A stretch of 64,000 nucleotides of DNA from a virus, in IMG/VR virus record IMGVR_UViG_3300045988_184227; one strand, written 5' to 3'. Of the stretch, positions 2,673 through 41,160 are shown in pieces. Numbering within the stretch: position 1 is the stretch's first letter; each line of letters opens with the position of its first letter. The position numbers and the translations under genes are program-made. Under the pieces are notes generated by a model. It was given only the letters and a program-made list of their open reading frames with translations. It was not told the origin of the DNA and ran no database searches.

Positions 2673-2678
2673 TTGATA

Positions 2679-4892: not shown

Positions 4893-4966
4893 AAGGGATG
4901 GTGGGAATTGAACCCGACGAATGTAGGCGTGAAAAGCCTATGCCTTAGCCACTTGGCGACACCCCC
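4893..4966 (-). tRNA. tRNA-Glu (UUC) candidate with a weak T-stem
   Basis: Anticodon stem TAGGC/GCCTA with loop TTTTCAC. Acceptor pairs with two G.U. The T-stem has only 3 clean base pairs. Confidence 0.5.
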
Positions 4967-5268: not shown

Positions 5269-5341
5269 CGGTGATACGGAGAATCGAACTCCGGTCTCTC
5301 GGTAGACAGCCGAGCGCACTAACCACTGTACTATACCACCA
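5269..5341 (-). tRNA. tRNA-Asp (GUC)
   Basis: Anticodon stem CTCGG/CCGAG with loop CTGTCTA. Acceptor GGTGGTA/TATCACC. T-loop GAGTTCGATTCTC. Confidence 0.8.
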
Positions 5342-5384
5342 TAAACCCGGCAACCAAAAGAAGGAAAGAATGGCTGCGGGCAAC

Positions 5385-5456
5385 CGGGCGGGTAGGACTT
5401 GAACCTACGACACAGGGATCTTCAATCCCCTGCTCTACCAACTGAGCTACCACCCT
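5385..5456 (-). tRNA. tRNA-Phe (GAA)
   Basis: Anticodon loop TTGAAGA. D-arm AGCTCAGTTGGTAGAGC. T-loop GGTTCAAGTCC. Confidence 0.8.
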
Positions 5457-5987
5457 TGAAACACCAGGATGTTTTTCCTACTCGACTTAGCGCTGCAAAC
5501 TATTAAGGTTACACGCTGACTAGGAATGGCCCCGGTTTGCAACTCCGGTTGACCTAGCCTTTTTAAAGCGTGGGAAGTATCAACAACCCCAACTCAAACA
5601 AGCACCACATAATAGATTTTTTTACCCATACGTAAACGTTATATCCAACGTAGATTTTGCCTGAGTGCCTCCGAAAATCTTATAGTTACGTTACCGCAAC
5701 ATCAACTACAATCGCATTGTTCGACACACAACTTTGGTTCCCTAAGTGTCACCTCAGATTCACTGTTGCGGCCAGCTATAGGACGAATCCCGTTCACTGA
5801 CACTTGTTGCGACGATTCGCAGAGCACCTTGTTTTTCGCACCGTCTCGCAAATTATCTCAGCCTGAACCATTTCACCGGTCTCCACTCTGGAACAATAAT
5901 AGTAAAGGTATCCCTATACCACAATTGCAGGTCTTAACAAGATAACCCAGGCACCACTTGCTAAGTGGAATTATGCCCTTTGGTGTA

Positions 5988-6062
5988 TTCGGGGAGTAGG
6001 ATTCGAACCTACGGCCTTTGGAGAATGAGTCCAACGAGCTGACCAGACTGCTCTATCCCCGG
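5988..6062 (-). tRNA. tRNA-Met (CAU), copy 3. It starts with C1-G72.
   Basis: Acceptor CCGGGGA/TCCCCGG. Anticodon loop CTCATTC. T-loop GGTTCGAATCC. Confidence 0.8.
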
Positions 6063-6085
6063 ATAATATTATAAAACTATCAAAT

Positions 6086-6114
6086 AGTATAAACTATTAT
6101 TTGAAATATGTCAA
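6086..6114 (-). promoter_or_regulatory. Sigma-70-like promoter (TTGACA, 17 bp, TATACT) upstream of tRNA-Met copy 3
   Basis: Minus-strand reading is TTGACATATTTCAAATAATAGTTTATACT. It is preceded by AAAAAAATAAAAAAAC and GTTATAATAGTTGAG. Confidence 0.65.
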
Positions 6115-6182
6115 TAGTTTTTTTATTTTTTTCTACTCAACTATTATAACGTATTTTTCTACAAGAAATAGTTGAGAAAAAG

Positions 6183-6272
6183 GATAGGGTGGGATTCGAA
6201 CCCACGGGTGACTTATTAGGCCACTGAACTGCTTTCAAAACAGCCTGCTTTTGACCGCTTGCATACCTATCC
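6183..6272 (-). tRNA. tRNA-Ser (UGA), long variable arm
   Basis: Anticodon loop TTTGAAA. 90 nt long with a long variable arm. T-loop GGTTCGAATCC. Confidence 0.8.
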
Positions 6273-6484
6273 ATTAACGGTGGTTTTATTTGGGATTCGG
6301 TCTCACTTCTCAACCACCAACCAATTTATTTGGCATATTGCACGGAAAACCCAACTTCCCTGTGCGCCAATTTCAGAACCTATGGGCGAACCATTCAACT
6401 AGTATAGTTCTGAAATTAAGATAGAGGGTGCGAGCCCACGACTTTAATAATTAAAGTCTGTTCTTCTAATCGAACATATCCCAG

Positions 6485-6574
6485 ACGGAGCAAGTAGGAT
6501 TCGAACCTACGCACGACATCTCTGCCGCCTAATTGTTTTCGAAACAAGCCTCTTAACCACTTGAGTATTGCTCC
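6485..6574 (-). tRNA. tRNA-Ser (CGA), long variable arm
   Basis: Acceptor GGAGCAA/TTGCTCC. Anticodon loop TTCGAAA. Near-identical backbone to the tRNA at 7937-8026. Confidence 0.7.
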
Positions 6575-6953
6575 TAACTTAAACTCCTAAAACTTTTAAA
6601 TTGCCACGCCCCTCGGCAATTTGGTCAAACCAATTTCACCGGTTTTTTAACGTGGTTGATGACATCCACAGGGCGTATCGCAGACCTAAATCCACGATGA
6701 TAAGTTGTACGGAGTGAGCGTGATCAGGGCTCACTAGACAAACTCGCTTTCACGAGAAACAACCTTTCATTATTGACGATCTTGGGCACGTAGTCGCAAC
6801 TGAAACAATCACGTAACTTCGGGGTTGATAGTCCCTACTGAAATTATTTCAGCTGAGTTGGAACTTTTACAGTTCCAGTAAAAGGGTGAGGATGATCAGC
6901 TCTCACTAGGAAAACTCGTTTGCACGAGAAACAATAATCGATCATCAATAATG

Positions 6954-7026
6954 AAGCGCAGTACGGGAATCGAACCCGTGTCATCAGTTTGGAAGACTGA
7001 GGTTTTACCATTAAACTAACCACGCA
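6954..7026 (-). tRNA. tRNA-Gly (UCC)
   Basis: Anticodon stem TCAGT/ACTGA with loop CTTCCAA. T-loop GGTTCGATTCC. Confidence 0.8.
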
Positions 7027-7139
7027 GATCGCTGTCGTCACAGCGTTATCAAAATTTTTATACAATCATTAGGATAAAAATTTTCAGCAACTACAACTCT
7101 TTCAAGCTGAGTAGTTAACGTGAGCTGAAACATATCCTA

Positions 7140-7220
7140 TCCCCAGCGCAGGACTTGAACCTGCACGATAAAAATCGCAGAGGCTTAAACTCTGTGTGTC
7201 TGCCATTCCACCAGCCAGGG
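7140..7220 (-). tRNA. tRNA-Leu (UAA), long variable arm
   Basis: Anticodon stem CAGAG/CTCTG with loop TTTAAGC. Variable arm CGAT/ATCG. T-loop GGTTCAAGTCC. Confidence 0.75.
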
Positions 7221-7222
7221 TA

Positions 7223-7297
7223 CTGAGAGAGTGGGACTCGAACCCACAGCCTTCCGGTTAACAGCCGGGCGCTCCACCATTGAGCTATCCCCCATCA
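7223..7297 (-). tRNA. tRNA-Asn (GUU)
   Basis: Anticodon stem CCGG/CCGG with loop CTGTTAA. T-loop GGTTCGAGTCC. Confidence 0.75.
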
Positions 7298-7305
7298 GTA
7301 TGAAA

Positions 7306-7390
7306 ATGGAAGCGGTAGGATTCGAACCTACGAACTCGAAAGAGAGCAGGGTTACAGCCTGCCGTGTTTAACCAGCTTCACTACACTTCC
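7306..7390 (-). tRNA. tRNA-Tyr (GUA), long variable arm
   Basis: Acceptor GGAAGTG/CGCTTCC. Anticodon stem GCAGG/CCTGC with loop CTGTAAC. Confidence 0.8.
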
Positions 7391-7441
7391 AAAATATTCT
7401 TTTACTATTATAGCACTTTTTTTATCAAATGCAAGATAGTA

Positions 7442-7516
7442 ATTCTCAGAACAGGGTTCGAACCTGTGCGTTACTGGATTCAAAGTCCAGTGCCTTACCA
7501 ACTTGGCTATCTGAGA
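7442..7516 (-). tRNA. tRNA-Gln (UUG)
   Basis: U1-A72 acceptor TCTCAGA/TCTGAGA. Anticodon loop CTTTGAA. T-loop GGTTCGAACCC. Confidence 0.85.
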
Positions 7517-7520
7517 TTAA

Positions 7521-7595
7521 ACGCACCCTGAAGGAATTGAACCCACAACCTTTCGGTTCGTAGCCGAACGCTCTATCCTGTTGAGCTAAGAGTGC
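7521..7595 (-). tRNA. tRNA-Arg (ACG)
   Basis: Anticodon stem TTCGG/CCGAA with loop CTACGAA. Acceptor GCACTCT/AGGGTGC. Confidence 0.75.
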
Positions 7596-7634
7596 TTATA
7601 TATTTTATTATACATCTTTTTATAAGAAGAGTAG

Positions 7635-7710
7635 GGCGATCGACAGGACTCGAACCTGCAATAGACGGATTCACAGTCCGTTGCGTTTTTCCGTTTTCGC
7701 CACGAACGCC
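7635..7710 (-). tRNA. tRNA-His (GUG) with genome-encoded G-1
   Basis: Anticodon stem ACGGA/TCCGT with loop CTGTGAA. An extra 5' G pairs with discriminator C73. Confidence 0.75.
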
Positions 7711-7936
7711 AAAATGATTTTGAAATTTGTGTGGAGTACGATTCCACGATGTTCCCGGCGATCACTCTAGTATGATCTCTATCGATTCATCCAAACGGGA
7801 ACTGTCACCAAGTAAGCGAAGATGAATTTCACATACATCTCAACCAAAAATTTCAAAAAATATACGTCGGAGTCCGCAGTTGCAACCGTAAGCGGATACT
7901 CCAGTAACCCCTCGATCACTGTCCACGATTTCGGAC

Positions 7937-8026
7937 TACGGAGAGAATAGGATTCGAACCTACGCACGACATTTCTGCCGCCTATATGTTTTCCAAACAT
8001 ACCTCTTAACCACTTGAGTACCTCTC
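7937..8026 (-). tRNA. tRNA-Ser (GGA), long variable arm
   Basis: Acceptor GGAGAGG/TCTCTCC. Anticodon stem TATGT/ACATA with loop TTGGAAA. Confidence 0.75.
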
Positions 8027-8201
8027 CAAAGTAAAGGTTTGCCACATCACTATATACTATTATATAGCAATATAATCCGTGGCAAACCCTTTAAAATAAT
8101 GCAAGCTATAAAAATTCAAAAATGCAATTATCAATTTGCCGTTTGACAATAACAAGTCTATCACAATATTTTTAGCTTGTCAATACTTTTTTAAAAATTT
8201 T

Positions 8202-17731: not shown

Positions 17732-18886
17732 TTAGTTAGTGCGGAACATTGAAGGAATGCTATCCTCGAATGTTGGAAAATCATCTTCATTTGAACCTGT
17801 GTTGTTGCTTGATTCAGAATCAATATCTACAAATGTTGGAAGTTCATCTTCTTGTTTTGAATCTGTTTTTTCTGGCGTAGTCACATCAACAAATGTTGGA
17901 AAATCGTTAGATTGCTCTTGTTCTGAAGAATTGATTGTTTCATCCACAAAAGTTGGGGCTTCTTCAGCAATGTCTTTGGGTTTTTCCTCTTTTGCGATTG
18001 AAGCGCCTAGTCTATTTGTTCCAATTTTTGTTGCTTTCACAGGTTTACTTGTGTTTTGCTTAACTGTAGCCTTTTTTTCACTCTTTGTAGCTGCTGGGCG
18101 AAGCATATCTTTTTCGAAATATTTTTGATTTGGTGGTGTCATACGATCCTTTTCCTCGGAAACGATATATTTCGCAGGAACTGGTTCCTTAACAACTGTA
18201 AATGTATCACGAAGAACTTTACGTCCAGTTTCAACACCATCAGTATAAGTGATTTCGACTTTACGAACAGCCTTACCAGGAATACCTTCAGAAAGAAGTT
18301 GTTCTTGTACACCTTCCAATTCAGTATCTACAAGATGTTTTCTTTTTGGCTTAATAACCACTTCTTCTTCAATAGTTTCTTTTTTAATTTCTGGCTCTTT
18401 TTTAGTCGGAATATCTTTTTCTACCTTTTTTACAGGATCTTTTTTTGCAACAGGTTTAGATTTCACTTTTTTGTTGTTTTCTTCAATAGTTACATTTTTA
18501 TTTTCTGTAATATTAACAGCAGAAGCCGAAGGAACTTCACCTTTGTTCCCAGAACCAACAAAAGCGGCATTTAAGAGGTTACTTTGGTCGTGTAAATAAG
18601 CACCCAAACGAGGTCGACCTAGAACCTTAATGAATAAGTATGCAAGATCTAAATTTTCAACACCACCATTTTTACCAAGATCAATTAGAGTTGTTTGTTC
18701 AGGGAATTTTTTTCTAACGTTTGAATTTACAGTTTCTCCATTAGCAAGAAGAACTACATCTTCTGACTGGACAATTCTGTAATCCGTTAATTCCTTAACA
18801 CTTCTTGAATAAACAATTGAAAGTTCATCAACGAATGGTAGGGTTTTATTTAAAATATCTTTATTTTCTGTAATAATAAAAAGCAC
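17732..18886 (-). CDS. Hypothetical Lys/Glu-rich protein with an acidic tail carrying four copies of a (F/L/A)PTF(V/E)D motif
   Basis: The C-terminus contains APTFVDE, FPTFVDV, LPTFVDI and FPTFEDS. Confidence 0.55.
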   Translation of the reverse strand: MLFIITENKDILNKTLPFVDELSIVYSRSVKELTDYRIVQSEDVVLLANGETVNSNVRKKFPEQTTLIDLGKNGGVENLDLAYLFIKVLGRPRLGAYLHDQSNLLNAAFVGSGNKGEVPSASAVNITENKNVTIEENNKKVKSKPVAKKDPVKKVEKDIPTKKEPEIKKETIEEEVVIKPKRKHLVDTELEGVQEQLLSEGIPGKAVRKVEITYTDGVETGRKVLRDTFTVVKEPVPAKYIVSEEKDRMTPPNQKYFEKDMLRPAATKSEKKATVKQNTSKPVKATKIGTNRLGASIAKEEKPKDIAEEAPTFVDETINSSEQEQSNDFPTFVDVTTPEKTDSKQEDELPTFVDIDSESSNNTGSNEDDFPTFEDSIPSMFRTN

Positions 18887-20919: not shown

Positions 20920-21028
20920 CTATTAGATTCTCCTTGAGTAAAAAAGAATAAGTTTTCTAACTAATTTTATTGCAAAAAAGAAAAGGGAGTCCCTTTTCTT
21001 TAATTCTATATATTTATATTTTTCTAGT

Positions 21029-21766: not shown

Positions 21767-22777
21767 TTATTCGCCCCCCTTGATATTAAACTCTTTCTTA
21801 AGTTGTTCTTTTTGAAAGTTTTCACCGGCTTTGAGATCCTCTTGTTCTTGGAAGTTACGGTTAACAACTTTCGCAATTGGAGCAATCAATTTATCTTGAA
21901 CATCATTATACTTTTCATTTAAGTTATTTGCTAAAACTGCGGTGTTGATTTGCACATCTCGTCCCTGACGAACACCAGCAGAATAAAGTCTGATTGTATT
22001 CAAAGTATCAATGATCTCAGAATAATAACTCAAAGTCGAATTAATAGCAGCGTCTTTATCGTATGCTGCTAACAATTGTAAATAACTGTATTTGTTATAG
22101 GAAAATGGCAAAGATACAGTCTTAACAGCATTCATAGCAGAAAAACTCTTCTCTGTATTTCCGTAATAAAGCAATTCTATACCAGCCATCAAATCATTTT
22201 CTACCTCTGTCAATTTTTTTTCCTTGACGGCAGTTGAATAAGATGGATTTTCTTTTATAGAATTGATTAGATCCACATAATCAAAAAAGTTAAGTTTGTC
22301 CTTTTCTGTAAATTCTTTGATATCACCTTGAGCAGGATCGATCTTCTGATATTTCAATCCGTTAGTGAAGAAAAACTGGTAATATCGAACTTGTTCGGCT
22401 AATTCGATTTTACTAGGCTCTGTAATAGGTTTTTTGATAGAGTTTACATCAATCTTACCATCTTCATTGATTCCCTCTTTGTTATCTTTGTTAACTGATG
22501 GGTAACCCACATCTGCGTAATTTTTGTGAAGTTTTTCTGCAATCTCAGTCTTTTTGTAAACTTCGTTAGTTAGAGGCAACAAACCATCCAACTGTTTAGC
22601 AACCGCTCTGATAATAGCGTCTTTTTTGGAACTGTCATCAACCTTGCTTGTTTCAAATGCAGGGCTCGGTCCGATGGCGTAAGCTGTTTGCACCGTTGAA
22701 TTACAATGCTGAAGCAATATCAGAGAAGATCCCAAGACTCCAATTATTCTAGCAAGATTCTTTTTATTCTTTTTCAA
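21767..22777 (-). CDS. Secreted hypothetical protein (signal peptide)
   Basis: N-terminal hydrophobic signal-like segment. Confidence 0.5.
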   Translation of the reverse strand: MKKNKKNLARIIGVLGSSLILLQHCNSTVQTAYAIGPSPAFETSKVDDSSKKDAIIRAVAKQLDGLLPLTNEVYKKTEIAEKLHKNYADVGYPSVNKDNKEGINEDGKIDVNSIKKPITEPSKIELAEQVRYYQFFFTNGLKYQKIDPAQGDIKEFTEKDKLNFFDYVDLINSIKENPSYSTAVKEKKLTEVENDLMAGIELLYYGNTEKSFSAMNAVKTVSLPFSYNKYSYLQLLAAYDKDAAINSTLSYYSEIIDTLNTIRLYSAGVRQGRDVQINTAVLANNLNEKYNDVQDKLIAPIAKVVNRNFQEQEDLKAGENFQKEQLKKEFNIKGGE

Positions 22778-23182
22778 TTTCAGGCTGAATACCCCCTTTT
22801 ATTTTTCTGCGTCATTCTTTCTTTATTTTACCATCTTTATTTTTAAAAATTTTGAGTTGAATTTTCCAAAAAACAAAGGTCAAAAATGCAAATATATTAA
22901 AGTGGATGGTTACAAATGAGTCTTTGAGCTCATTGTATTAAAACACGAATGTATTTTACAGTGCACATCATAAATGTTCGACTTTATTTAATTATTTGGG
23001 TTATTGTTGAGTTTTTATAATTCGATCCGGTTAAGGGGAATGTTACTACTAAAAAAATGTAATTATTTTATTCGAGATATTAATATACATATCGCTAAAA
23101 GTCTTGATACACAAGGGTTTCAGCGTTGTGTTTTTAGCTAGAATTTATTTCAAAAAAGGATGTTATAATAGTTACGTGATAA

Positions 23183-23622
23183 AAAATCTTTGAGTTTTTT
23201 AAACCAAGATTTTTATGTTTTTCAAATATTCTAGACTTTGATTATATTTCAAAGTCTATTAGAAATAGATATTAAAGTGCACATTGAAAATTGAATATGG
23301 TTTTAGATCAACAACAAGAATACTTAAAATATTTTTTTATACAAAATAATAATATTAAGAAAGTATTTGGATGAATGGTTTGCTTACACAAACCATTGCG
23401 AATTATCGAAGATAATTCGCAGTTTGATAAGGTTTTTGGAGTTTATATTTGGATTTTTAAAAAAACTAAAAATATTATTATCAGACTGATCCAAAAATAA
23501 TCTAGTTCTTAAAAGTTTTATAAAAAAAATTAAGATATTAATTTTAAAACACGTCCTAAAAAGTGTTATTTCGCAAACTATTTGGATGATTTTTTAAACC
23601 GAGATTTTTGAGAAAAATCTCA
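23183..23622. repeat. Two copies of a TTTTTTAAACC(A/G)AGATTTTT element, each inside a 9-bp-arm inverted repeat (AAAAATCT/AGATTTTT)
   Basis: Copies at 23192-23217 and 23588-23613. Palindrome GAGATTTTTGAGAAAAATCTC at 23601-23621. Confidence 0.55.
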
Positions 23623-23995
23623 GTTTTTGATAAAAAACAAAGTATTGATTACTTATTTTCGCATTAAGTTCGGAAAATGCGAACAATGTACCAGAGTAAG
23701 TGAACCTATCTGTCGAAAAAATAAAGGAGCCGAAGGCGACTTCCAACAAGGCGAAGCCGATTATTCTAGAGCGACCGAAGGGAGCCTTCTCTATTACAGT
23801 AAAAGTAATCTAATACTATTATTATTACAGTATATATAATATTCTTTAATTAATTAAGGGTATATATTATTCTTTAATTATTTAAGTATATATAATATAT
23901 AACTATATTTATTACAGAGTAATAATATATATAACTATTTGTTTATTTAAAGTACCTATATGTAGTACTGATGTGAAGGGGGTTGTTTTTATTTA

Positions 23996-24024
23996 TTGAC
24001 TTAGTTGTTTTGTTGTGGTATAAT
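23996..24024 (+). promoter_or_regulatory. Sigma-70 promoter (TTGACT, 17 bp, TGgTATAAT) for the helicase gene
   Basis: TTGACT at 23996-24001 and TATAAT at 24019-24024 with an extended -10 TG. Confidence 0.7.
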
Positions 24025-24117
24025 GATTGCTGATAACAAATAACGACAATATTTGCGTCATTTTACGTTGTTTTTTTGTTTTAGCTAAAATACTTGTAAA
24101 AGAAGGTGGTGAAGTAA

Positions 24118-26493
24118 TTGAAAAAGGGTACTGTTTACAGTAATAAAGCGATTTTCGTTGAAGATTTTGATAGACATCAAAAAATTGAATTGAAATTTAA
24201 AATTGAAAAGGTCTTGTTCCAAAAAGACACTTTCGCAATTGTTAACGTTGATGTTACCTGGAATGATAAACGTGTTCTCTTTCCTCAAAACAGAACCACC
24301 ATTTTGGGTTCGTTCTTGGATCCACGTATTGGAGATGTGTTTACAGGAACTGGAATTATTCAGCACGATAAGCGTTACGGTTATTCTGTAAAACTAAAAA
24401 CAACACCTCAAGTCTACACTCCAAGGACAAAGGTTGAAATCGTCGATTTTCTCAGTTCTCAAATTGATGGAATCGGAAAGATTAAGGCCGAAAGGATTTT
24501 TGATTATTTTGGTGAGGATACAATTCAAATTCTCCAAGGAAATCCTGAGTTAGTCAAAAAAGTTGGAGTTCCTATCACAAGCAAAACGATGGAATGTATA
24601 AAGTCTAGACTTGTAGATGGTGGAGTTCTAAACAAGATATTCACAGTTCTTAATTTAATGCAGCTTCGGGAAAATTTGGCTATTAAAATTTACGACAAAT
24701 ACGGTGCTAAATCATACGATGAACTATTAGCAAATCCGTATATTATTGCAGAGGTTAGTCCGTTACATTGGAGAGCGGCGGATGAATTTTACTATCGTCA
24801 ATTAAAAGAAAACAAGGATTTACCAAGCTTGTTAGATTTTTCTGCAAACCCACTACGATTTCGTACAGCAATCAAGTACTTCCTAAAGTTAAAAGTTGAA
24901 TTATCGGGGTCTCTAGCATACCCTCTGAAAGAATTACAGGATAATTTTTTAGATACAAAATTCTGGGAACGAATGTCAAGGTTCGGATCTCAGGGTGCTA
25001 GATTGACCAAGACCCAATTAACAATTTTATTAGGGGAATTGGAAAAAGAGGGCGAAATCTATCAAACAAAATCAAAAACAAGTGGTGAATATTATCTATA
25101 TTTGCAAAATTCATTTTTGGCAGAAACAAATATCGTTCAGTTAATTAAATCGTTTAATCGAAATAGTTACTCAAAATCTTCTGAGGATGATGTTCACGAA
25201 TTTATCGAGGAATATCAGAAAAAGTATGGATTTAAACTAGCAGATAATCAAAAACAAGCTGTGGATTTATTGGCAAACAATAAGATTTCTATTTTGACAG
25301 GTGGTCCTGGATCCGGAAAGACAACAACCGTTAAGGCCGTGAAAGAGTTTATCGATTTCCTTTCTGAAAAAGGTAAAATTAATGACTCGAGTGTTGTGTT
25401 GTTGGCCCCTACAGGTAAAGCCGCTAAACGTCTCGCTGAGGTTTTAGGATTCCCCGCTTCCACAATTCACCGAAAACTACATCTTCAGGGGTTTGGTAGA
25501 GAAGAAAATATTAAGAAAATCGAGGAGCATTTTGTAATTGTAGATGAATCCTCAATGATTGATGTTTACTTATTTTCTCAACTTTTAAGCGCATTGTCGC
25601 CAAATTCAAACCTTTTGCTTGTTGGTGATGAGAACCAATTACCTTCCGTTGGGGCAGGTTTAATTCTGAGAGATTTGATTGAATCTAAAAAAGTAGAAAC
25701 TGTTATCTTAAACAAAGTTTTTCGTCAAGCTGACGGTTCAAGATTGGTTAGCAATGCGCACCTTATGAAATCTGGTGTCGGTTACAACAAGGGAAACCCA
25801 AACGGGCTTGTTTTTAACGAAAAGAGAAGTGATGGTGGACTTTCAGACTCTTACTTTATCAATACACAAAATACACAAGAGGGTATTGACGCACTGATTA
25901 AATCGTACAAACGATTTTTAAAACTTGGATTTGAACATAGTGATATTTTAATCCTATCAGCTCAAAAGAAAGGCGAATTGGGAACTTTGAATATCAATCG
26001 TGAAATCCAGAGGACGTTTGAACACCCCGAAGATGAGCCGGTTATTATTCGTAAGGAAGACAATTCTGCGTTTTATGTTGGAGATCCAATTATTCAAATG
26101 GTGAACGACTATGATAATTTTGTCTTTAATGGAGAAACCGGGATTGTGACTGACATTATTATTAGAGATAATGAAAAAAAGGTTTTAGAAGTAACATTCG
26201 AGGGTGATACTGTCGACGAAAATAGGGTTGTTGAGTATTCCGGATACAGTATTTACGATATCAATATTGCATACGCAATAACTTGCCATAAATCGCAAGG
26301 TAGCGAGGCTAAGGTTGTTATTCAGATTGTAGACAAGACACAACGAAGAACTTTGAACAGATCGCTTGTTTACACTGGATATACAAGGACACGAGAAGTT
26401 AATGTTATCATCGGTCAAGTAGAAACTCTTAATGAGGCACTATCAGACGTGTCTAATCTGGAACGAGTTAGTTTGATTAAAGAGCGTCTGTAA
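24118..26493 (+). CDS. RecD2/Dda-like SF1 helicase (TTG start)
   Basis: Walker A ILTGGPGSGKTTT. Motifs VVLLAPTGKAAKRL, VIVDESSMID, LLLVGDENQLPSVGAG and ITCHKSQGSE. Confidence 0.8.
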   Translation: MKKGTVYSNKAIFVEDFDRHQKIELKFKIEKVLFQKDTFAIVNVDVTWNDKRVLFPQNRTTILGSFLDPRIGDVFTGTGIIQHDKRYGYSVKLKTTPQVYTPRTKVEIVDFLSSQIDGIGKIKAERIFDYFGEDTIQILQGNPELVKKVGVPITSKTMECIKSRLVDGGVLNKIFTVLNLMQLRENLAIKIYDKYGAKSYDELLANPYIIAEVSPLHWRAADEFYYRQLKENKDLPSLLDFSANPLRFRTAIKYFLKLKVELSGSLAYPLKELQDNFLDTKFWERMSRFGSQGARLTKTQLTILLGELEKEGEIYQTKSKTSGEYYLYLQNSFLAETNIVQLIKSFNRNSYSKSSEDDVHEFIEEYQKKYGFKLADNQKQAVDLLANNKISILTGGPGSGKTTTVKAVKEFIDFLSEKGKINDSSVVLLAPTGKAAKRLAEVLGFPASTIHRKLHLQGFGREENIKKIEEHFVIVDESSMIDVYLFSQLLSALSPNSNLLLVGDENQLPSVGAGLILRDLIESKKVETVILNKVFRQADGSRLVSNAHLMKSGVGYNKGNPNGLVFNEKRSDGGLSDSYFINTQNTQEGIDALIKSYKRFLKLGFEHSDILILSAQKKGELGTLNINREIQRTFEHPEDEPVIIRKEDNSAFYVGDPIIQMVNDYDNFVFNGETGIVTDIIIRDNEKKVLEVTFEGDTVDENRVVEYSGYSIYDINIAYAITCHKSQGSEAKVVIQIVDKTQRRTLNRSLVYTGYTRTREVNVIIGQVETLNEALSDVSNLERVSLIKERL

Positions 26494-27592: not shown

Positions 27593-28597
27593 ATGGTTAA
27601 AAAGTCTAATGAAATTAAGGATCCTAAAATTGATGTTTTTAAACAATTGCAAACTTTTTCAAAAAAATCTGTTAGTGATGTGGCAACAATTTTGGAAAAC
27701 GACGAATCTTTTATGGGGGCGTTAAATACCTTAATTAAAAATTGTTCTTATTTTTTAAATCTCAAAAACGTTGATACTCAAGAAGGAAAATTGCTTGTTG
27801 AAAATTTAAATTTAGTTCCTGAACTAGAAAAAGCAATTGGTGAAATTACAATTTCATTTGATGAGCGGTTTGTGACAAGAAATAATTTTTACGTTCACGA
27901 AATTAAAAATTTAAAAATCAACATTCCCCAAAATACAAATCCCAATATCAAAACAATAATTACTGAAAGATTTTCAAAAGTAAAAGGTGATCTCTTAGAA
28001 ATTAATGTTTACGATATAAAAAAAAGCCCTTCACAACGAGCAAAAAAAAGTGAAATTGAAAATTTTTTACTTAAGAAAATTAAAAGAGGATTATATCCTT
28101 TTAATATTATTTTCCGTGATAAGTGGATTGAAACAACCACAAAACTTATTCCACTTTTGATTGACAATGATGGACAGCTTTACACAGATAAGAGTTATAA
28201 ATTTCAAAAGGAATGTATTAAATTCGGAAATTTACAAATTGGACTAAATACTTTAGGAACTTACTCTTCAAAATCAAACGGGCTGTTCTTTAATTATTTA
28301 TGTAATAATCTTGATCTTAATAAAAAACTCTTATTAGAATTTTATGCCGAAAAGATAATCAAATACGCAGTTAAAAAAGCCTCGGAAGTTTTAATTTTGA
28401 ACGATCCCTTTACAATTGATGATGTTCGAAAGGGTAACGCTAAACTTGAATTGATTTCTGATGAGAAAATAAAAGAGCGTCTTAAATTTAATCATAACGT
28501 ATTAGGTCTCAAAGATTTCATCAAAAATGAAAAAGATCCAAAACAAATCGAACGATTTGCTGAAATTATTGCAGAGTTGTTAAAGGGTAACGCCTAA
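27593..28597 (+). CDS. Paralog family A member 1 (unknown function)
   Basis: Shares NTNP, YPFNIIF, LLIDNDGQL and C-terminal DPKQIERFAEIIAELL motifs with 29921, 30878, 31944 and 33028. Confidence 0.6.
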   Translation: MVKKSNEIKDPKIDVFKQLQTFSKKSVSDVATILENDESFMGALNTLIKNCSYFLNLKNVDTQEGKLLVENLNLVPELEKAIGEITISFDERFVTRNNFYVHEIKNLKINIPQNTNPNIKTIITERFSKVKGDLLEINVYDIKKSPSQRAKKSEIENFLLKKIKRGLYPFNIIFRDKWIETTTKLIPLLIDNDGQLYTDKSYKFQKECIKFGNLQIGLNTLGTYSSKSNGLFFNYLCNNLDLNKKLLLEFYAEKIIKYAVKKASEVLILNDPFTIDDVRKGNAKLELISDEKIKERLKFNHNVLGLKDFIKNEKDPKQIERFAEIIAELLKGNA

Positions 28598-28680
28598 GAA
28601 AACTGAATTAATTCAGTTTTCTTTTTTTATAATTTTAAAAATAAATTACTGAGCAAGCTCAGAGAAAGAAGGAACCAACA

Positions 28681-30787: not shown

Positions 30788-30877
30788 GAAGTAGACGCAG
30801 AGATTGAGAGAGTTGATTTTTGTAATCAATTCTCTTTTATAATTAAAGAAAAATATATAGAGAAAGAAGGTGCTCGA

Positions 30878-31837
30878 ATGAAAAGTTCGAAAGATAATAA
30901 CAATGAAGTTTTAGATTTATCTTTGTCACTTAAGAATATTGCAAAAATGAGTGATGAGGATATTTTATCAAAAATAGGTGAGGCTAAAATTGTAAAAGAA
31001 ATCTATGATGAATTTGCAGATTTGTACGCACGATTGAATTACACTGATGATTTTGCAAAGATGTTTGCTGAAAAACCGGAATTAATCTTTGAGTATGAGA
31101 AAGCGATTAAGGATTTAAAATTTGATTTTAATATCGTCGAAAACTCAAGCAATACTTTTGAAGTTGGCAAGTATGTTTCTGTAATATTTCCAGAAAAGAT
31201 TCGTAGAGAATTTAAGGATAAAATTAATACTAAAGTTAAGGAAATTTCCAATGGTTTTAGTTGGGAACATTTTACAGTTTCATTTCGTGTGAACTCGAAA
31301 TATGACTCTGAAGATAAAGTCGTAACCTCTTTATCTAAGTATTTGAAAGAAAAATTATCCTTTACTAACCACATCTATCATTCTGAAAAATCGTCACATC
31401 ACTATCTTAAAACAACTACTGTTTATCTTGATAAAAATAAAATTTTATCTTTGGACTTCAAACATCATCTTATTGTTTTATTAAATTTGAAGATTGGCGT
31501 TAACGATAAAAACAATTTTTTATCTCGTGATAATAAGTTATTTTTAAAAGCGTTTATTAACGATGAAGATGATGGAATTTTATTAAAAGATTATTGTGAT
31601 AAAGTTAGAAAAAAGGCTCTAGAATTAAGCGCAAAATTTTTAATTGAAGAGGATATCTTTTCCTTTAAAGATTTAGAAGCTAGAACAGCCTCATTAGACT
31701 ATTTCACTGATAAAAAAATAAAAAGCGAATTGCGTTACAATAATAACTTCTGTGCTATTAAAGAACTTTTGTATAACGAATCAAAAGAAAATAAAAAACG
31801 TTTCGCTGATATTATTACAGAATTATTGTTAGAATAG
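30878..31837 (+). CDS. Paralog family A member 3
   Basis: EKPELIFEYEKAIKDLKFDF and C-terminal KKRFADIITELLLE. Terminator at 31860-31890. Confidence 0.6.
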   Translation: MKSSKDNNNEVLDLSLSLKNIAKMSDEDILSKIGEAKIVKEIYDEFADLYARLNYTDDFAKMFAEKPELIFEYEKAIKDLKFDFNIVENSSNTFEVGKYVSVIFPEKIRREFKDKINTKVKEISNGFSWEHFTVSFRVNSKYDSEDKVVTSLSKYLKEKLSFTNHIYHSEKSSHHYLKTTTVYLDKNKILSLDFKHHLIVLLNLKIGVNDKNNFLSRDNKLFLKAFINDEDDGILLKDYCDKVRKKALELSAKFLIEEDIFSFKDLEARTASLDYFTDKKIKSELRYNNNFCAIKELLYNESKENKKRFADIITELLLE

Positions 31838-31886
31838 CTGTATTACTTTAAGTTTTTAACAGACCGACATTAATGTCGGTCTGTTC

Positions 31887-31943: not shown

Positions 31944-32963
31944 ATGGTAAAGACTACCAAAGATGAAACAAACTTTATCAATTTAGTTAATAGGATGAAG
32001 GTTCTTGCTAATAAGAGTGTTGAAGAAATTTACGAAGACTTACTTGATAACGATCCGTTCAACAATGCTATTGATTATATTTTGACTTGTTTGCGCTCAT
32101 CTTTAAAATCAAATTCAAAAGATAGGGATATTCGTTTATTAGCTAACAATCCTCATCTTATATTAGAATATGACAAGATTGTAAGTGAACTTGAAATTTC
32201 TTGTGATTTTGAAGACGGGCCTTATTCTATCATATCATCTCCCTGGAGTAATGATACTTACGAGACAATTTTAATTAAAAATCTTTTAGTAAGTGATATT
32301 CCATCTGATATCAATAAGAAGATGAGTTTATCGCTAGAAAAACGGATTCAAATTGCAAAGAGAAAGGTTTCTCTTATAAAGAAAATAGATCTCAACATTG
32401 ATCCATATAATAGTGAGACTCCAGAAGAAGTAACCCACAATGACGTTATTTCTAAGGTATCAAAAATGATGAAGGAAGAGTTATCTCCATTCAATATATT
32501 TCTCGGTATTGAAAGGTTTTCTAAACATATTTCTTTATTTGTTGATAGTGATGGCAATTTAGGCAATGTTTTCGAATCCAACACACAAGATTACACAAGG
32601 TTTTGTGATGTTGATGTCTATTTATACCCAAGAAGTCCAGATCTTTTAAAAACATCTTACATCAAAATGTTGGAAGATAGATATGGAGATTCTTATGATG
32701 ACATTGTTATATATTATGCAAAAATAATCAAACTAGAAGCTGAGATGTACCTATCCAAACTTTTGCTTGGTGGTAATAAATTTACTCTTGACAATGTTAA
32801 AACCGGGCAGTACGGGCTTGGTATTCTAAGCGAAGGAAGAATTGAGGATGAGATTCGCAATCGTGTTGCATTTAAACAGCTAAAATCTCTAATCCAGTAC
32901 GAAAATGATCCTGAACAGAGAAAAAGATTTGCAGAGGCTGTCTCCAGATTATTACAAGAATAG
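31944..32963 (+). CDS. Paralog family A member 4
   Basis: NNPHLILEYDKIV, SPFNIFLGI, LFVDSDGNL and DPEQRKRFAEAVSRLLQE. Confidence 0.6.
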   Translation: MVKTTKDETNFINLVNRMKVLANKSVEEIYEDLLDNDPFNNAIDYILTCLRSSLKSNSKDRDIRLLANNPHLILEYDKIVSELEISCDFEDGPYSIISSPWSNDTYETILIKNLLVSDIPSDINKKMSLSLEKRIQIAKRKVSLIKKIDLNIDPYNSETPEEVTHNDVISKVSKMMKEELSPFNIFLGIERFSKHISLFVDSDGNLGNVFESNTQDYTRFCDVDVYLYPRSPDLLKTSYIKMLEDRYGDSYDDIVIYYAKIIKLEAEMYLSKLLLGGNKFTLDNVKTGQYGLGILSEGRIEDEIRNRVAFKQLKSLIQYENDPEQRKRFAEAVSRLLQE

Positions 32964-33027
32964 AGAGGTACCTCTCTATTCTTTTCTTATAATTTAAAAA
33001 AATAAAAATTTTAGAAAGAAGGAAAAA

Positions 33028-34071
33028 ATGGTAATTAAAACAAAAGAAGATGATGATAATCAATTTATTAATCTAATGAATGCTGCAAAAAATCTAGCAA
33101 AAATAGATACATCTGAAATTGTTAAAGTTTTAAGGAAAAATAGAGCATTTAACTTAAAAATGGAAGATATTTTATGCAAAATTAAATCAAATTTCAAAAC
33201 TAATAGTAATGATCGAGATATTCGTTTGTTCGCAAACAATCCTCATCTCATCATTCAGCACGATGAAATAGTAGAAAATTTAGTTTTTGATATTGATTAT
33301 AGATTCTTTGATTCAAAGACAAATTTCAAACCTGGCGGTAAACTTGGTAGAGATCATAGATATCTATTGGAAATTACAAAATTAAATATTACAGGAGTTC
33401 CTGATGATATTAATAAAAAAATGTATCTTTTTTTAACAAAAAACATTAAGAAGCTTGAGGTTGAGACGGCATATATTTTTAATAATCTTATTAACACCAG
33501 AAATCCTAGTGTTGAACTTGATAGAGAAGAAACTATAAATAGAATTTCAAAATATCTTGCAAAAAAACTATCAGTTTTCAATCAATTTAATTTTGATTCA
33601 AATTTAGGTTCTTATACAATAGAATTTTATATTGATTCAAATGGTGAACTATCACTCTATCATACAACTGACTCCTCCAAAGTTGGTCATCACAAAATAA
33701 AGTTATCAACTAAGGATTTTTCAACAAGCTGGATGAATAAAAATTTAATTCAGATGTTAATCGACCCTCGTGGTGAAGGTTATGAAAATATTTTAGAATA
33801 TTATGCGAAAAAAGCAAAGGAAGATTTTGAGGATTATTATAAAAAAATTCTACTTTCCGAAGATTGTTTTGAATTTAAAGACTTTCTATCCCAAAAGCAG
33901 CCGATTTGGCTTATAAGTGATGAGGAATTAAAATCTGGATTGATAGATAATGATTCGATGATGAAATTAATAAATATGTTTCAATTCAAATGTGATCCTG
34001 AACAAAAGAAGAGGGTTATTCGGATTGTCTCTGAAATTTTAGAAGATATGGATAGTATTCTTCCGTTTTAA
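33028..34071 (+). CDS. Paralog family A member 5
   Basis: NNPHLIIQHDEIV, FYIDSNGEL and DPEQKKRVIRIVSEILE. Confidence 0.6.
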   Translation: MVIKTKEDDDNQFINLMNAAKNLAKIDTSEIVKVLRKNRAFNLKMEDILCKIKSNFKTNSNDRDIRLFANNPHLIIQHDEIVENLVFDIDYRFFDSKTNFKPGGKLGRDHRYLLEITKLNITGVPDDINKKMYLFLTKNIKKLEVETAYIFNNLINTRNPSVELDREETINRISKYLAKKLSVFNQFNFDSNLGSYTIEFYIDSNGELSLYHTTDSSKVGHHKIKLSTKDFSTSWMNKNLIQMLIDPRGEGYENILEYYAKKAKEDFEDYYKKILLSEDCFEFKDFLSQKQPIWLISDEELKSGLIDNDSMMKLINMFQFKCDPEQKKRVIRIVSEILEDMDSILPF

Positions 34072-39589: not shown

Positions 39590-41160
39590 AAAAAAGAGGG
39601 TTTTAAATCCCTCCAAACCGGTTTTCCCCTACGAGGTGTTCACCGGAAACTATTATAAGACTGGTGGGGTATTCTTCGGGCGATACCTCACATCAACGCC
39701 TAAATATAGGTTTAAATGGTTTATACAAATGTATCATTTGTTATCATTTGTATCATTTAATTTTTAACATTCCACAATGACTTTTAACTCATCGTTTATG
39801 TTAAAGGCAACCTACATCACCTCTATAAGCCCTCTTTGGTGAATACCAAATACGGGTTTACGTGTATTTTTCTATTAACTTTTTATTAGACAATATATTA
39901 TAACCAGTCAAACTTCTTGTATGAAATGATACATTATTTCTGTTGAGACAAATACCAAATTTACTCAAACCCTTACTCAGGATGTTATATGATCCATTAA
40001 TATCAGCATTAATAAGTTTTCCGTTCTTAGATTTATACAAACCTCTTTTTACACGTTTTCCAGAAAATGTATATTTTTTACCATCGTTTTTCCAAACCGG
40101 AATTACATCAGAGTCTATAAAGCTAGCTTTTGATGTGTAAGATTCTTCCTGCTCTACAACTTCTATTCCTCGTAACTGACATTTGTACTTTAGCTGAGAA
40201 ATAAATTTATTATAGGGAATTTGAACAAAATTTTGATTCCCCTTTTTACCAATAGAAATACCAGACTTTAAACCAACATTTTTACCAATAAAAACCTTTT
40301 CAAGTGCCATCTCGTCGAAAAATTCTGCTAAAAATCCTGTGATTTTATGAAATTCTGATTGCAATTTCATCTCACGATTTCTAAAAAGACGGTGGATGTG
40401 CTTACTTGTTTTTTGATTATTTGGTAATTTAGATTGATATTTAGATATCAGGCGATTATACCCTTGATTGATATATTTAACATTCAACCCCTTAATCAAA
40501 AGCGGGTTCGTTCCATCAGAAAATGTAACCGCAGCCAAATTATCAACGCCGAGGTCAATTGAAGCGTATTTATGAGTTTTTCTTAAAGGTTTTTCTTTAA
40601 CCTCGTAAATAACATCAATAAAAAAATAACCATTTCTTGGAATTATCTTGACACATTTTGGGTTGTCAACTTTTGTTGGAATTGAGATCCTCAGATCTTT
40701 TGGGCATAAGATAAGTTCGTTATTTCCCCCACGCTTTTTAGCGAAAGTTTGGTTTGTGAACTCAACCGCATACCTACCTTCTGTCTTGTGTAGATATCCT
40801 GGGATCTTTGGTTTGTTAGTTATTTTCTTATTTGACTTGTCATTGTAACCTTTTAAAACCTGATAATATGAACTGATATTACCACCCAACATTTTTATGA
40901 TATTGGTTGAAACCTTAGATGGCAATGCTTTCATATCGTTCTGGTCTTGTTTCCTAAATTCAGAAACTAATTGTGACCAGCTTAGTACTGGTTTTTTATT
41001 TTCTTTATCAGACTTTTCTCGTTCAAATATTGATTGACGGATTTGATACAATCCAGCATTATAAAGATTCTTAGATTTAAATGTTAAATCATCACAAATT
41101 TTGTATAAATCATTGCTAGGTTTGATTAGATGTCTTTCTACTTGTCTCACTACTGCCTCC
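39590..41160 (-). mobile_element. IS605/IS1341-type element remnant: tnpB-like gene plus downstream structured non-coding right-end region. No tnpA.
   Basis: TnpB RuvC motifs. GC-rich 270-nt non-coding tail with hairpins at 39590-39857. Confidence 0.55.
39858..41150 (-). CDS. tnpB: TnpB-like RuvC nuclease lacking the CxxC...CxxC zinc finger
   Basis: RuvC-I IDLGVDNLAAVTFSDG. RuvC-II EESYTSK. RuvC-III INADINGSYNIL. No Cys between RuvC-II and RuvC-III. Confidence 0.75.
   Translation of the reverse strand: MRQVERHLIKPSNDLYKICDDLTFKSKNLYNAGLYQIRQSIFEREKSDKENKKPVLSWSQLVSEFRKQDQNDMKALPSKVSTNIIKMLGGNISSYYQVLKGYNDKSNKKITNKPKIPGYLHKTEGRYAVEFTNQTFAKKRGGNNELILCPKDLRISIPTKVDNPKCVKIIPRNGYFFIDVIYEVKEKPLRKTHKYASIDLGVDNLAAVTFSDGTNPLLIKGLNVKYINQGYNRLISKYQSKLPNNQKTSKHIHRLFRNREMKLQSEFHKITGFLAEFFDEMALEKVFIGKNVGLKSGISIGKKGNQNFVQIPYNKFISQLKYKCQLRGIEVVEQEESYTSKASFIDSDVIPVWKNDGKKYTFSGKRVKRGLYKSKNGKLINADINGSYNILSKGLSKFGICLNRNNVSFHTRSLTGYNILSNKKLIEKYT

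Follow-up and report, generated by a model that had tools for sequence, protein, structure and literature searches.

We read the 1340-bp interval at positions 22778-24117 of the 64,000-nt stretch of DNA analyzed here (the window) as one of two paralogous cis-acting replication cassettes, most likely an origin or initiation zone, of an Inocle-like element, and hold this reading tentatively, with slightly less than even confidence. Each genome carries the entire cassette at two places that lie ~110 kb apart and share one orientation, upstream of a RecD2-like helicase gene (copy M1, the interval studied here) and upstream of the Pol III alpha gene (copy M2), and no homology was found between the flanking genes of M1 and M2. 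Comparison among relatives supports a functional, conserved non-coding element with origin-like anatomy that is linked to replisome genes, and it strengthens the origin reading, which is plausible.

The interval and its replicon

The interval spans the gap from the end of a minus-strand 336-aa ORF (22777) to the start of the plus-strand helicase gene (24118) and, at 25.7% GC, is the largest gap without a tRNA in the 64-kb window. An earlier reading made from the letters of the window alone (the sequence-only reading) had proposed an AT-rich divergent intergenic region here, which is confirmed, and all the features that it listed are found in the sequence at their given positions, descriptions aside. 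Hidden small genes were considered and rejected: no small ORF in 22778-24117 has a Shine-Dalgarno (SD) sequence, and none survives the frameshifts in relatives, in which indels (L014 and L007) break the ORFs. The interval is truly non-coding. Judged from substitution patterns, two blocks within it are under strong purifying selection, block A at 23131-23432 and block B at 23655-23940, with substitution diversities of 0.024 and 0.006, respectively, versus 0.11-0.20 at third codon positions and 0.075-0.09 in intergenic spacers. The first ~80 nt at the left end are also conserved (diversity 0.007-0.014) and contain a putative extended -10 promoter of the leftward 336-aa gene (TGGTAAAAT, 22825-22833, minus strand), recognized by its motif and by this conservation. 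The stretch around the helicase promoter, 23941-24117, is variable (diversity 0.076).

Megablast of the intergenic region against 50,697 phage records gave no match, and nothing in these records exceeds 31% identity to the helicase. No matches were returned by IMG/VR scans with helicase peptides and with the 33-mer core of the GC-rich islet described below, or by a GTDB genome scan with the islet. The Rfam 15 covariance models gave nothing below E = 0.7 in 22600-24300, which is chance level only, and nothing at E ≤ 1 in the M2 copy.

From its gene content and comparison with the literature, the replicon is probably not a phage but a giant plasmid-like element of oral Streptococcus that resembles the Inocles and is probably circular. 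Inocles were described by Kiguchi et al. [quoted passage not shown] The element studied here resembles them in size (contigs of 276-393 kb), in its saliva source, to which the accession prefixes of the contigs point, in GC content (~33% in the window, hence ~32-33% for both), in its tRNAs (23 in the window) and IS elements (TnpB), and in core genes, namely those for the helicase, topo II B, Pol III alpha and an SbcCD-like protein. The window covers about one-fifth of the element, and its scanned ORFs yielded no InoC marker (about 454 aa, Replic_Relax PF13814); nor were phage structural proteins or an N4-like giant RNAP found among the window proteins.

Anatomy of the cassette

By sequence comparison and predicted folding, block A consists of an orphan extended -10 promoter and, behind it, a predicted structured non-coding transcript with two abutting hairpins at its end. 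The promoter (P_nc, TGTTATAAT, 23161-23169, plus strand) has no ORF downstream and is kept in all module-1 lineages. The sequence-only reading had placed a promoter without a downstream ORF here, and it was right on both counts, given that TGTTATAATAGTT is exact at 23161-23173 and that no conserved or SD-preceded small ORF follows. The motif TGNTATAAT occurs at 18 sites in the window, 14 of which lie just upstream of a gene start (12 sites, at 33-94 nt) or a tRNA gene (2 sites); the 23161 site is the sole copy in a gene-free stretch without a downstream gene start or tRNA gene. The promoter reads GGTTATAATAGTTAC in L007/L022/L035 and TTGACA-17-TATAAT in L010, and its counterpart in M2 is TTGACA-17-TAGAGT. 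It lies 630 nt upstream of the AT-rich tract described below and points at it.

The predicted transcript (23176-23432, plus strand) combines low diversity with a fold z of -4.65, none of 200 shuffles being as stable. Its predicted fold includes plus-strand hairpins at 23182-23214 and 23232-23258. A box further on, CATTGAAAATTGAATA (23282-23297, plus strand), is kept in M2 along with the two terminal hairpins, HP1 and HP2. HP1 (AATGGTTTG-CTTACA-CAAACCATT, 23374-23397, plus strand) reads ACAGGTTTG...CAAACCTGT in M2, which amounts to two compensatory pairs, and is degraded in L025/L026. Sequence comparison identifies HP2 (23397-23421) as a perfect palindrome with 11-bp arms, TGCGAATTATC-GAA-GATAATTCGCA, that shows one arm mismatch in L007 and one in M2. 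Its 3-nt center is inverted (GAA/TTC) between near-identical genomes, and in the L007 lineage it is followed by a U-tract, which makes it terminator-like.

The 20-mer TTTTTTAAACC(A/G)AGATTTTT occurs at 23195-23214 and 23590-23609, each copy forming one arm of a 9-bp inverted repeat, and the pair is only moderately beyond chance (at least two matches at ≤3 mismatches in 8 of 100 shuffles). The sequence-only reading had seen this pair correctly and had assigned it an iteron-like role, which was rejected because copy 2 reads AAAATAAGATTTTT in close relatives and is lost there as a repeat, so that the pair cannot count as conserved iterons. A terminator-like plus-strand hairpin, GAGATTTTT-GAG-AAAAATCTC plus AGTTTTTGAT (23601-23631), overlaps copy 2 and has it as its 5' arm; relatives retain this hairpin, and L028/L034 show a compensatory T>C/A>G pair in it. 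Both terminator-like hairpins, at 23397-23421 and 23601-23631, sit between the orphan promoter and the islet and AT-rich tract. A primer RNA reading into the latter, in line with the earlier suggestion, is at most conjectural, given that the conserved plus-strand terminator at 23601-23631 intervenes; with this terminator, the U-tract after HP2 in L007 and a G-skew of only 0.08 in the islet, an R-loop or primer RNA is left without direct support.

Block B starts with the hairpin TTCGCATT-(10 nt)-AATGCGAA (23658-23683, plus strand), which is conserved in close relatives. The GC-rich islet already recognized from the sequence alone is present at 23655-23795, with 44% GC. Its core, GGAGCCGAAGGCGACTTCCAACAAGGCGAAGCC (23726-23758, plus strand), is unique in the window and has 30 of its 33 positions invariant across M1, M2 and lineages; its exact pattern was found at 17 metagenome loci, and indels among copies are confined to the linkers. 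Two predicted mini-hairpins lie in the core on the plus strand, CCGAAGG at 23730-23736 and GCGAAGC at 23751-23757. The GCCGAAGG / CCGAAGGGAGCC complementarity reported earlier within the islet was a misdescription: what is present is a self-complementary heptamer in direct copies, each with a mini-hairpin of its own. At a third plus-strand site, CCGAAGG at 23775-23781, the hairpin is kept and the sequence is not, as the L007 lineage reads CCGGAGG there and M2 has GCGAAGC at a position shifted by ~4 nt; the potential hairpin thus survives both a compensatory G-C>A-T change (L007) and the positional shift in M2. Three GAA mini-hairpin motifs fall within 55 nt in the islet versus three elsewhere in the window, their stems measure 2-4 bp, and 86 of the 87 instances across all cassette copies are on the plus strand. 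CCGAAGG and GCGAAGC match the consensus of an extraordinarily stable DNA mini-hairpin reported at the phage G4 oric and at RSF1010 ssiA, where it adjoins the binding place of the RepB' primase (PMC13037366). Folded with standard parameters, the islet is no more stable than its shuffles (z -0.6 to -1.5), a result that is neither for nor against the mini-hairpins because nearest-neighbor parameters omit the sheared G-A mini-hairpin. As in single-strand initiation signals, the putatively stable hairpins lie on one strand beside a candidate melted region, and the window contains a DUF3991-Toprim primase-like gene at 54736-55767.

The candidate melted region is the AT-rich repeat tract at 23792-23962 (13% GC), which on the basis of duplex stability, repeats and conservation is a candidate DUE plus iteron array. 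It contains ATTACAG three times, TATATAWTATTCTTTAATTA twice at 28-bp spacing and ATATATAACTAT twice, and TRF reports 2.6 copies with period 28 at 23824-23898, in agreement with the tandem AT repeats noted before. The two to three imperfect units at 28-31-bp spacing have a period exceeding that of classical 17-22-bp iterons. At scales of 50, 100 and 200 bp the tract is the least stable duplex in the 64-kb window, ~4 SD above the mean, which substantiates the AT-rich unwinding tract of the sequence-only reading; the weakest 200 bp, 23798-23997, are placed as is the adjacent AT-rich unwinding element of an iteron-type theta origin. Among seven close genomes there are zero substitutions in 23778-23937. 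The L007 lineage has the 55-nt core (23860-23914) without any change and M2 has it nearly unchanged, so the direct repeats (~28-31 bp) are base-identical over 55 nt across lineages with 77-79% identical genes. The repeat unit is confined to cassette copies and its copy number varies among relatives. L010/L038 have four units of AACTTACRRTATATC, and L019 has at least three of 28 bp. Beyond the tract, the helicase promoter TTGACT-17-TGgTATAAT (23996-24024, plus strand) was also called correctly and matches the consensus at 11 of 12 positions. It precedes the gene for the RecD2-like SF1B helicase (24118-26493, plus strand), with the Pfam domains AAA_30, SH3_13, HHH_RecD2 and UvrD_C_2.

The second copy and variation among lineages

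A paralogous second copy had no place in the sequence-only account. Similarity between M1 and M2 is patchy over ~700 bp, genes diverge from both cassette copies, and the conserved block ends ~35-50 bp upstream of the -35 of each gene (helicase and Pol III alpha). In more distant taxa the intergenic regions before the helicase and Pol III genes are short (162 and 173 bp), and the cassette is therefore clade-specific. L010 and L038, which share 90.8% identity over 336 nt, form a diverged lineage that appears to keep the helicase/Pol III alpha pairing with a repeat sequence of its own, and such paired co-evolution matches the prediction of iteron/initiator specificity. The earlier reading had stressed proximity to both a helicase and a topoisomerase. 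The former holds, as the cassette remains with the helicase gene where the left flank differs; the latter does not, as the left flank is swapped in L003, and in L018/L019 the topo gene is downstream of the helicase gene. L003 carries a hybrid M2-left::M1-right junction with the crossover within ~100 nt of shared sequence. This hybrid, the flipped HP2 loop and the changes in repeat copy number may be signs of frequent single-strandedness or recombination.

Proposed initiation at the cassette and its alternatives

In the origin reading, the strong host-type promoter at 23161 would fire rightwards and produce a structured non-coding RNA of about 250-455 nt, and transcription, possibly along with read-through of weak terminators, would help to open the AT repeat tract at 23792-23962, which is probably also occupied by a lineage-specific binding protein. 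The three GAA-loop mini-hairpins (23730, 23751 and 23775) could then fold on the displaced plus strand and serve as single-strand initiation signals that withstand SSB and place a primase or primosome, upon which the element's own replisome would load. M2, before Pol III alpha, would give the same factors another place to initiate. An ORF-less promoter aimed at a candidate unwinding element, as at 23161, is also the arrangement of transcription-primed origins such as ColE1 RNA II, T7, T4 oriF/G and c2 PE1-T. In its most specific form, the reading would make the cassette the first sequence-level origin of Inocle-type elements, with GAA mini-hairpins on the displaced strand priming beside a protein-bound AT array and two origins firing before the element's own helicase and Pol III alpha genes; this is possible, but we consider it doubtful. 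Two origins would be unexpected given the single origin and terminus that Kiguchi et al. 2025 inferred from GC skew, with a reported switch of ORF orientation at the predicted origin (PMC12340149), and a cassette before two replisome genes suits a regulatory role equally. The Inocle paper contains no sequence-level origin, and there are two cassette copies here, not one (PMC12340149).

In contrast to the skew-predicted Inocle origin (PMC12340149), the skew of this window is a pure coding-strand effect. The GC-skew check that the sequence-only reading had proposed does place the cumulative minimum of the window in the interval, but coding-strand skew is 0.119 versus 0.140 for genes co-oriented versus counter-oriented to the putative fork, and third-position skew is ~0. 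Because gene orientation explains all of the switch (coding-strand skew of 0.12-0.14 on both strands and both sides), it carries no replication signal, and GC skew was rejected as uninformative about an origin. Neither 22700-24200 nor the M2 copies contain a DnaA box (TTATCCACA, ≤1 mismatch), and no Rep-family hit was found beside either copy, the neighbors being the helicase, Pol III alpha, secreted or unknown proteins and an SbcCD-like protein.

Several known systems share parts of this anatomy. At ColE1 RNA II, pAMbeta1 and T4 oriF/oriG, transcription from a promoter runs towards a segment that melts easily, several hundred nucleotides further downstream, and the RNA is structured; pAMbeta1 also has a primosome assembly hairpin on the displaced strand. 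The cassette shares this layout and a (predicted) structured RNA, but has a conserved terminator before the AT tract, no G-rich hybrid anchor (skew 0.08) and no upstream rep gene. In the lactococcal Ceduovirus (c2-type) phages, the experimentally verified origin is a non-coding region that separates divergent modules and whose orphan promoter drives the non-coding PE1-T transcript (PMC7150918). The likeness includes the non-coding region between divergent blocks, a first promoter without RBS or ORF that yields a structured transcript (predicted here), a low-GC Gram-positive host, and sequence that varies by lineage within a kept architecture (PMC7150918). However, there is no sequence similarity, the cassette is duplicated before helicase and Pol III alpha genes, and it has GAA mini-hairpins, a conserved AT array and a terminator between transcript and AT tract. 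RSF1010 oriV has the same modular order of direct repeats, AT-rich unwinding segment and hairpin single-strand initiation signals, its replicon likewise supplies its own replication enzymes, and its ssiA contains the heptamer CCGAAGG that is present twice here (PMC13037366). It differs in having 20-bp iterons, whereas the repeats here are ~28-31 bp and AT-rich, and in having two ssi sites on opposite strands, whereas all hairpins here are on one strand; no RepA/B/C homologues were seen here, and the upstream promoter and predicted ncRNA are particular to the cassette. The phage G4 oric, a complementary-strand origin, likewise groups three stable hairpins, the GCGAAGC type among them, on a single strand, and they are proposed to keep SSB off and guide primase (PMC13037366). 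In this ssDNA phage the signal is single-stranded at all times, whereas exposure here would need duplex opening.

A defined conserved cis-element would make Inocle replication experimentally tractable, with possible uses in autonomous-replication tests, vectors, curing, and estimates of copy number or growth rate from metagenomes. If the mini-hairpins are true initiation signals, they would be a natural dsDNA-replicon case of clustered GCGAAGC/CCGAAGG, and if there are two origins, initiation would be coupled to the dosage or expression of replisome genes and inter-origin recombination would split or rearrange the replicon. If the cassette is regulatory instead, it would define a replisome regulon and a new non-coding RNA. 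That alternative is serious, although we judge it unlikely: the cassette would be a shared regulatory unit of replisome genes with no DNA initiation, in which the orphan promoter gives a small regulatory RNA or long leader with HP1/HP2 as attenuator or antiterminator, and the AT repeats and islet serve as operators or activator sites that co-regulate the helicase and Pol III alpha operons. Both copies are indeed immediately upstream of, and co-oriented with, a replisome gene, the conserved block stops short of the -35 of each gene by ~35-50 bp, the leader holds terminator-like hairpins with compensatory change, and the fold of block A is significantly more stable than those of its shuffles. 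Distant taxa have plain short promoters at both genes, which is what an optional add-on would leave, and co-evolving copies also fit one regulator with two targets. However, 0.8-1.3 kb is very long for a regulatory region, the AT tract and islet are the most conserved part and the surroundings of the gene promoters the most variable one, both gene promoters are near-consensus and would need no activator, and the mini-hairpin motifs are DNA-specific stable structures kept strictly on one strand (86/87 on plus).

The remaining alternatives are less likely. Lineage-specific direct repeats kept identical at two loci of a large, probably low-copy element (PMC12340149) could form a centromere-like partition site (parS/parC type) or other architectural array placed twice on a low-copy giant plasmid, which is improbable given that no ParA/ParB/ParR-type gene was detected beside either copy and that the orphan promoter, ncRNA and strand-specific mini-hairpins are left unexplained. 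That the two copies are att-like or resolution sites flanking a 110-kb segment, conserved through a site-specific recombinase, is very improbable: patchy similarity over ~700 bp on both sides of the crossover, including promoter and hairpins, is unlike att cores, no integrase adjoins, and a crossover in ~100 nt of shared sequence is as expected from homologous recombination or an assembly chimera, although the copies are in direct orientation ~110 kb apart, HP2 is a 25-bp palindrome with an invertible center, and the M2-left::M1-right junction of L003 is exactly what excision or duplication would give. Mini-vRNAP of phage N4 recognizes hairpins with 5-bp stems and 3-nt loops capped by GGA or GAA (PMC13037366), and the L007 lineage has a GGA loop; the GAA/GGA mini-hairpins could hence be single-stranded hairpin promoters of the N4 virion-RNA-polymerase type, but stems of 2-4 bp fall short of 5-7 bp, neither an N4-like giant RNAP nor phage structural genes were found in the window, and the replicon looks plasmid-like, all of which makes this idea highly improbable. 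Equally hard to credit is a genome terminus, packaging site or assembly-problem spot, proposed because contigs of several lineages, at least ten in all, break off within the cassette (L004-L006, L016, L008/L009, L018, L019, L023, L038 and L041). Many contigs, including ones of 276-393 kb, read straight across it, and the element is reported to be circular without read-end pile-ups (PMC12340149). The breaks are accounted for by the presence of two copies, the variable number of tandem repeats, the flipped palindrome and the 13% GC, and a physical genome end or terminal repeat was rejected as their cause, as the two copies and variable tandem repeats suffice. Whether the cassette is an origin or regulatory, its two-copy repeat explains both the recurrent assembly breaks and a possible 110-kb recombination product.

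The intergenic cassette and its selection

The interval between the end of a leftward 336-aa open reading frame (ORF; 22777) and the start of the RecD2-like helicase gene (24118) spans 1340 bp at 25.7% GC and is the largest gap without tRNA genes in the window. Every small ORF within it lacks a Shine-Dalgarno sequence, an Rfam search of the region returned no match, and the longest ORFs are disrupted in the related contig L014, through single-base indels, and in the L007 lineage (loci L007, L022 and L035), also through indels. Substitution diversity, computed over seven genomes whose helicases are 98-100% identical, was 0.11-0.20 at third codon positions of the flanking genes, 0.075-0.09 in the spacers of the interval, 0.024 in block A (23131-23432) and 0.006 in block B (23655-23940); for comparison, second codon positions gave 0.003-0.022. 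Zero substitutions were seen among the seven genomes at 23778-23937, where the sole changes are in repeat-unit copy number. As read from sequence comparison, the region is non-coding and under selection.

Block A holds an orphan promoter. The TGNTATAAT motif occurs 18 times in the window, and 14 of these sites closely precede a gene start (12, at 33-94 nt) or a tRNA gene (2). Only the 23161 site lies in a gene-free stretch with neither a gene start nor a tRNA gene downstream; the promoter TGTTATAATAGTT that the sequence-only reading had placed at 23161-23173 with no downstream ORF is indeed there. The 265 nt that follow fold far more stably than shuffled sequences (z = -4.65). They include a conserved 10-bp hairpin (23232-23258), the box CATTGAAAATTGAATA (23282-23297) and two abutting hairpins, HP1 (23374-23397), for which the cassette's paralogue has two compensatory pairs, and HP2 (23397-23421), a perfect 25-bp palindrome with 11-bp arms and a 3-nt centre. 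This centre is GAA in the window and in contigs L011/L017 and L015, and TTC in L002, L013 and L012 (otherwise near-identical, 99.7%) and in all other lineages; the change is an exact inversion of the centre and has arisen independently at least twice. Within the shared 22 kb, a multi-base loop inversion is seen in no other hairpin, and the single-base centre change of the palindrome at 20977-21001 (G>C in L014) is indistinguishable from a point substitution. Contig L023 terminates exactly at the end of HP2 (23421). Further downstream, a hairpin with a T-tract (23601-23631) differs in L028/L034 by T>C and A>G together, so that pairing is preserved; this points to a terminator, and hence to transcription, on the + strand. 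The predicted non-coding RNA would be ~255-455 nt long and stop at least partly before block B. The 20-mer TTTTTTAAACC(A/G)AGATTTTT is indeed present twice (23195-23214 and 23590-23609), each copy forming an arm of a 9-bp inverted repeat; its description as an iteron-like repeat has to be dropped, given that close relatives do not keep it as a repeat.

Block B opens with the GC-richer islet reported earlier (23655-23795, 44% GC). The mutual complementarity proposed for GCCGAAGG and CCGAAGGGAGCC within it was mistaken, both being direct copies of one self-complementary heptamer. The islet core GGAGCCGAAGGCGACTTCCAACAAGGCGAAGCC (23726-23758) occurs once in the window and is invariant at 30 of 33 positions across every copy found, with indels only in two linkers. 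It contains CCGAAGG and GCGAAGC, and a third mini-hairpin (CCGAAGG) lies at 23775. [quoted passage not shown] The motif has been reported at the primase start site of phage G4, as CCGAAGG in RSF1010 ssiA adjoining the binding place of the RepB' primase, and in N4 hairpin promoters (PMC13037366). Of the 87 instances counted over all copies of the cassette, 86 lie on the + strand. In the L007 lineage the second mini-hairpin survives a double change that replaces a G-C pair by A-T, and the third reads CCGGAGG; in the paralogue the third is a GCGAAGC at a shifted position. These changes argue that selection acts on the hairpin itself and not on the bare sequence alone. Standard folding energies, whose parameters do not model the mini-hairpin motif, fail to single out the islet.

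The AT tract after the islet has 13% GC and, at scales of 50, 100 and 200 bp, a lower duplex stability than any other part of the window. It carries direct repeats spaced ~28-31 bp, and the tandem repeats noted earlier were recovered with a period of 28 at 23824-23898; outside the cassette copies, the repeat unit was found neither in the window nor in the loci. Despite gene identities of only 77-79%, another lineage has exactly the same 55-nt AT core (23860-23914). The helicase promoter also stood up to scrutiny and is near-consensus (23996-24024).

A second copy and contig junctions

An islet scan of metagenome contigs gave 17 loci, and two large contigs carry two islet matches each, ~110 kb apart on the same strand. 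One of each pair is the helicase intergenic region (M1) and the other a second copy (M2) with the same order of parts: strong promoter, CATTGAAAATTAAATA box, HP1/HP2, islet, GCGAAGC hairpin, AT repeats and gene promoter. The gene directly downstream of M2 encodes Pol III alpha (1260 aa), and on the other side of M2 a 154-aa gene and an SbcCD-like gene point away from it. There is no homology between the M1-flanking and M2-flanking proteins, so the duplication is limited to the non-coding cassette. A diverged lineage has a helicase 63% and a Pol III alpha 59% identical. Its loci upstream of the helicase (L010) and of Pol III (L038) are 90.8% identical over 336 nt and share a different, lineage-specific repeat, AACTTAC(A/G)(A/G)TATATCATAA; we infer that these two loci, from different samples, represent one lineage. 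Still more distant taxa have short upstream regions at both genes (162 and 173 bp), and the cassette is clade-specific.

The duplication explains why at least 10 contigs end inside the cassette. It also explains contig L003, in which the left half of M2 (154-aa gene side) is joined to the right half of M1 (helicase side) at 4631-4738 (window ~23841-23950), within ~100 nt of shared AT core. Recombination between the two direct copies, giving a 110-kb circle or a duplication, would be expected to leave just this junction, which could equally be an assembly chimera. In L012 (k141_290146, 298,404 bp), the longest short-read contig, the cassette lies at 148,034-149,366 of the record, at the exact midpoint (149,202), a placement with a chance of ~1%; the contig break might be antipodal to the cassette on a circle, that is, at a terminus or hypervariable region. 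The topo II B gene and the next three genes, which the window has in inverted orientation to the left of the cassette, follow the helicase on its own strand in L018 and L019 (helicases 58% and 57% identical, respectively); the cassette therefore marks a rearrangement breakpoint. L019 begins within a 28-bp tandem repeat of at least three copies.

A possible origin or regulatory cassette

The cassette acts in cis, and its two copies must remain alike; we tentatively regard a replication origin or initiation zone, present in two copies, as the best explanation. Its origin-like character lies in the orphan promoter with a structured RNA, the strand-specific stable DNA hairpins, the conserved repeat array and the most easily melted DNA of the window. 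The cassette most resembles two known origins, that of c2 phages, which has the non-coding PE1-T transcript (PMC7150918), and RSF1010 oriV, with its logic of repeats, AT segment and ssi hairpins. Against an origin, no DnaA boxes were found in the cassette, no initiator gene is adjacent to it, terminators sit between promoter and AT tract, and its occurrence is restricted to one clade. GC skew, suggested earlier as an origin signal, does not help, given that its switch is wholly due to coding strand. The position before two replisome genes suits a shared regulatory cassette as well as an origin, and we consider such a cassette less probable overall but a serious rival; a partition site, a recombination site, N4-type promoters and a terminus or artefact are less likely. 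Origins or control regions with promoter, DNA unwinding element, repeats and hairpins are already known as a kind of element. What is new is how these parts are combined, the clustering of GAA mini-hairpins, the pairing of one copy upstream of the helicase with one upstream of Pol III alpha, and the giant element that hosts the cassette, described only recently and still scarcely characterised.

The replicon and other window genes

No phage structural proteins were found in the window, and no similar sequences in the phage collection or IMG/VR. Identical or related sequence is contained in metagenome contigs of 276-393 kb, several with accession prefixes suggestive of saliva or oral studies. 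All 23 tRNA genes of the window form one minus-strand array (332-8028), with TGNTATAAT promoters at 7415 and 2638. The window also encodes a topo II B-type protein, the RecD2-like SF1B helicase, a divergent DNA polymerase, a ClpB-like ATPase, TnpB, SPFH/flotillin proteins, a primase-like DUF3991-Toprim protein, nucleotide kinases and surface proteins with G5/SSSPR-51 domains. In size, GC, tRNAs, IS content and core genes, the replicon fits what has been published on Inocles, giant plasmid-like circles found in oral Streptococcus, whose core genes encode a RecD-like helicase, Pol III alpha, a gyrase-like protein and an exonuclease (PMC12340149). The Inocle marker gene InoC is absent from the window; the replicon is probably an Inocle.

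Between helicase and DNA polymerase lie four paralogous genes of no assigned function (27593-28597, 30878-31837, 31944-32963 and 33028-34071; ~320-347 aa, 22-32% identical), and perfect 28-nt palindromes (28596-28623, 31858-31885 and 32956-32983) sit at the ends of three of them. The short intergenic region at 30788-30877 contains a stretch (30838-30860, minus strand) that resembles the cassette repeat unit weakly, with 3 mismatches. Near its equivalent, L007, L011-L013, L016 and L017 carry an extra DpnD_N-domain gene (101-103 aa) that the window lacks, located in all of these except L007 between a 288-aa and a 320-aa (L013: 278-aa) gene. The DUF3991-Toprim protein (54736-55767, plus strand), of a primase-like type common on conjugative/plasmid elements, is a candidate to act on the hairpin signals. 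The TnpB / IS605 OrfB-type gene (39858-41150, minus strand) has OrfB_IS605 and Cas12f1-like TNB domains. Two G5 / SSSPR-51 domain proteins (41445-43271, plus strand, and 61976-63814, minus strand) are 75% identical, and a third G5 protein lies at 17732-18886.
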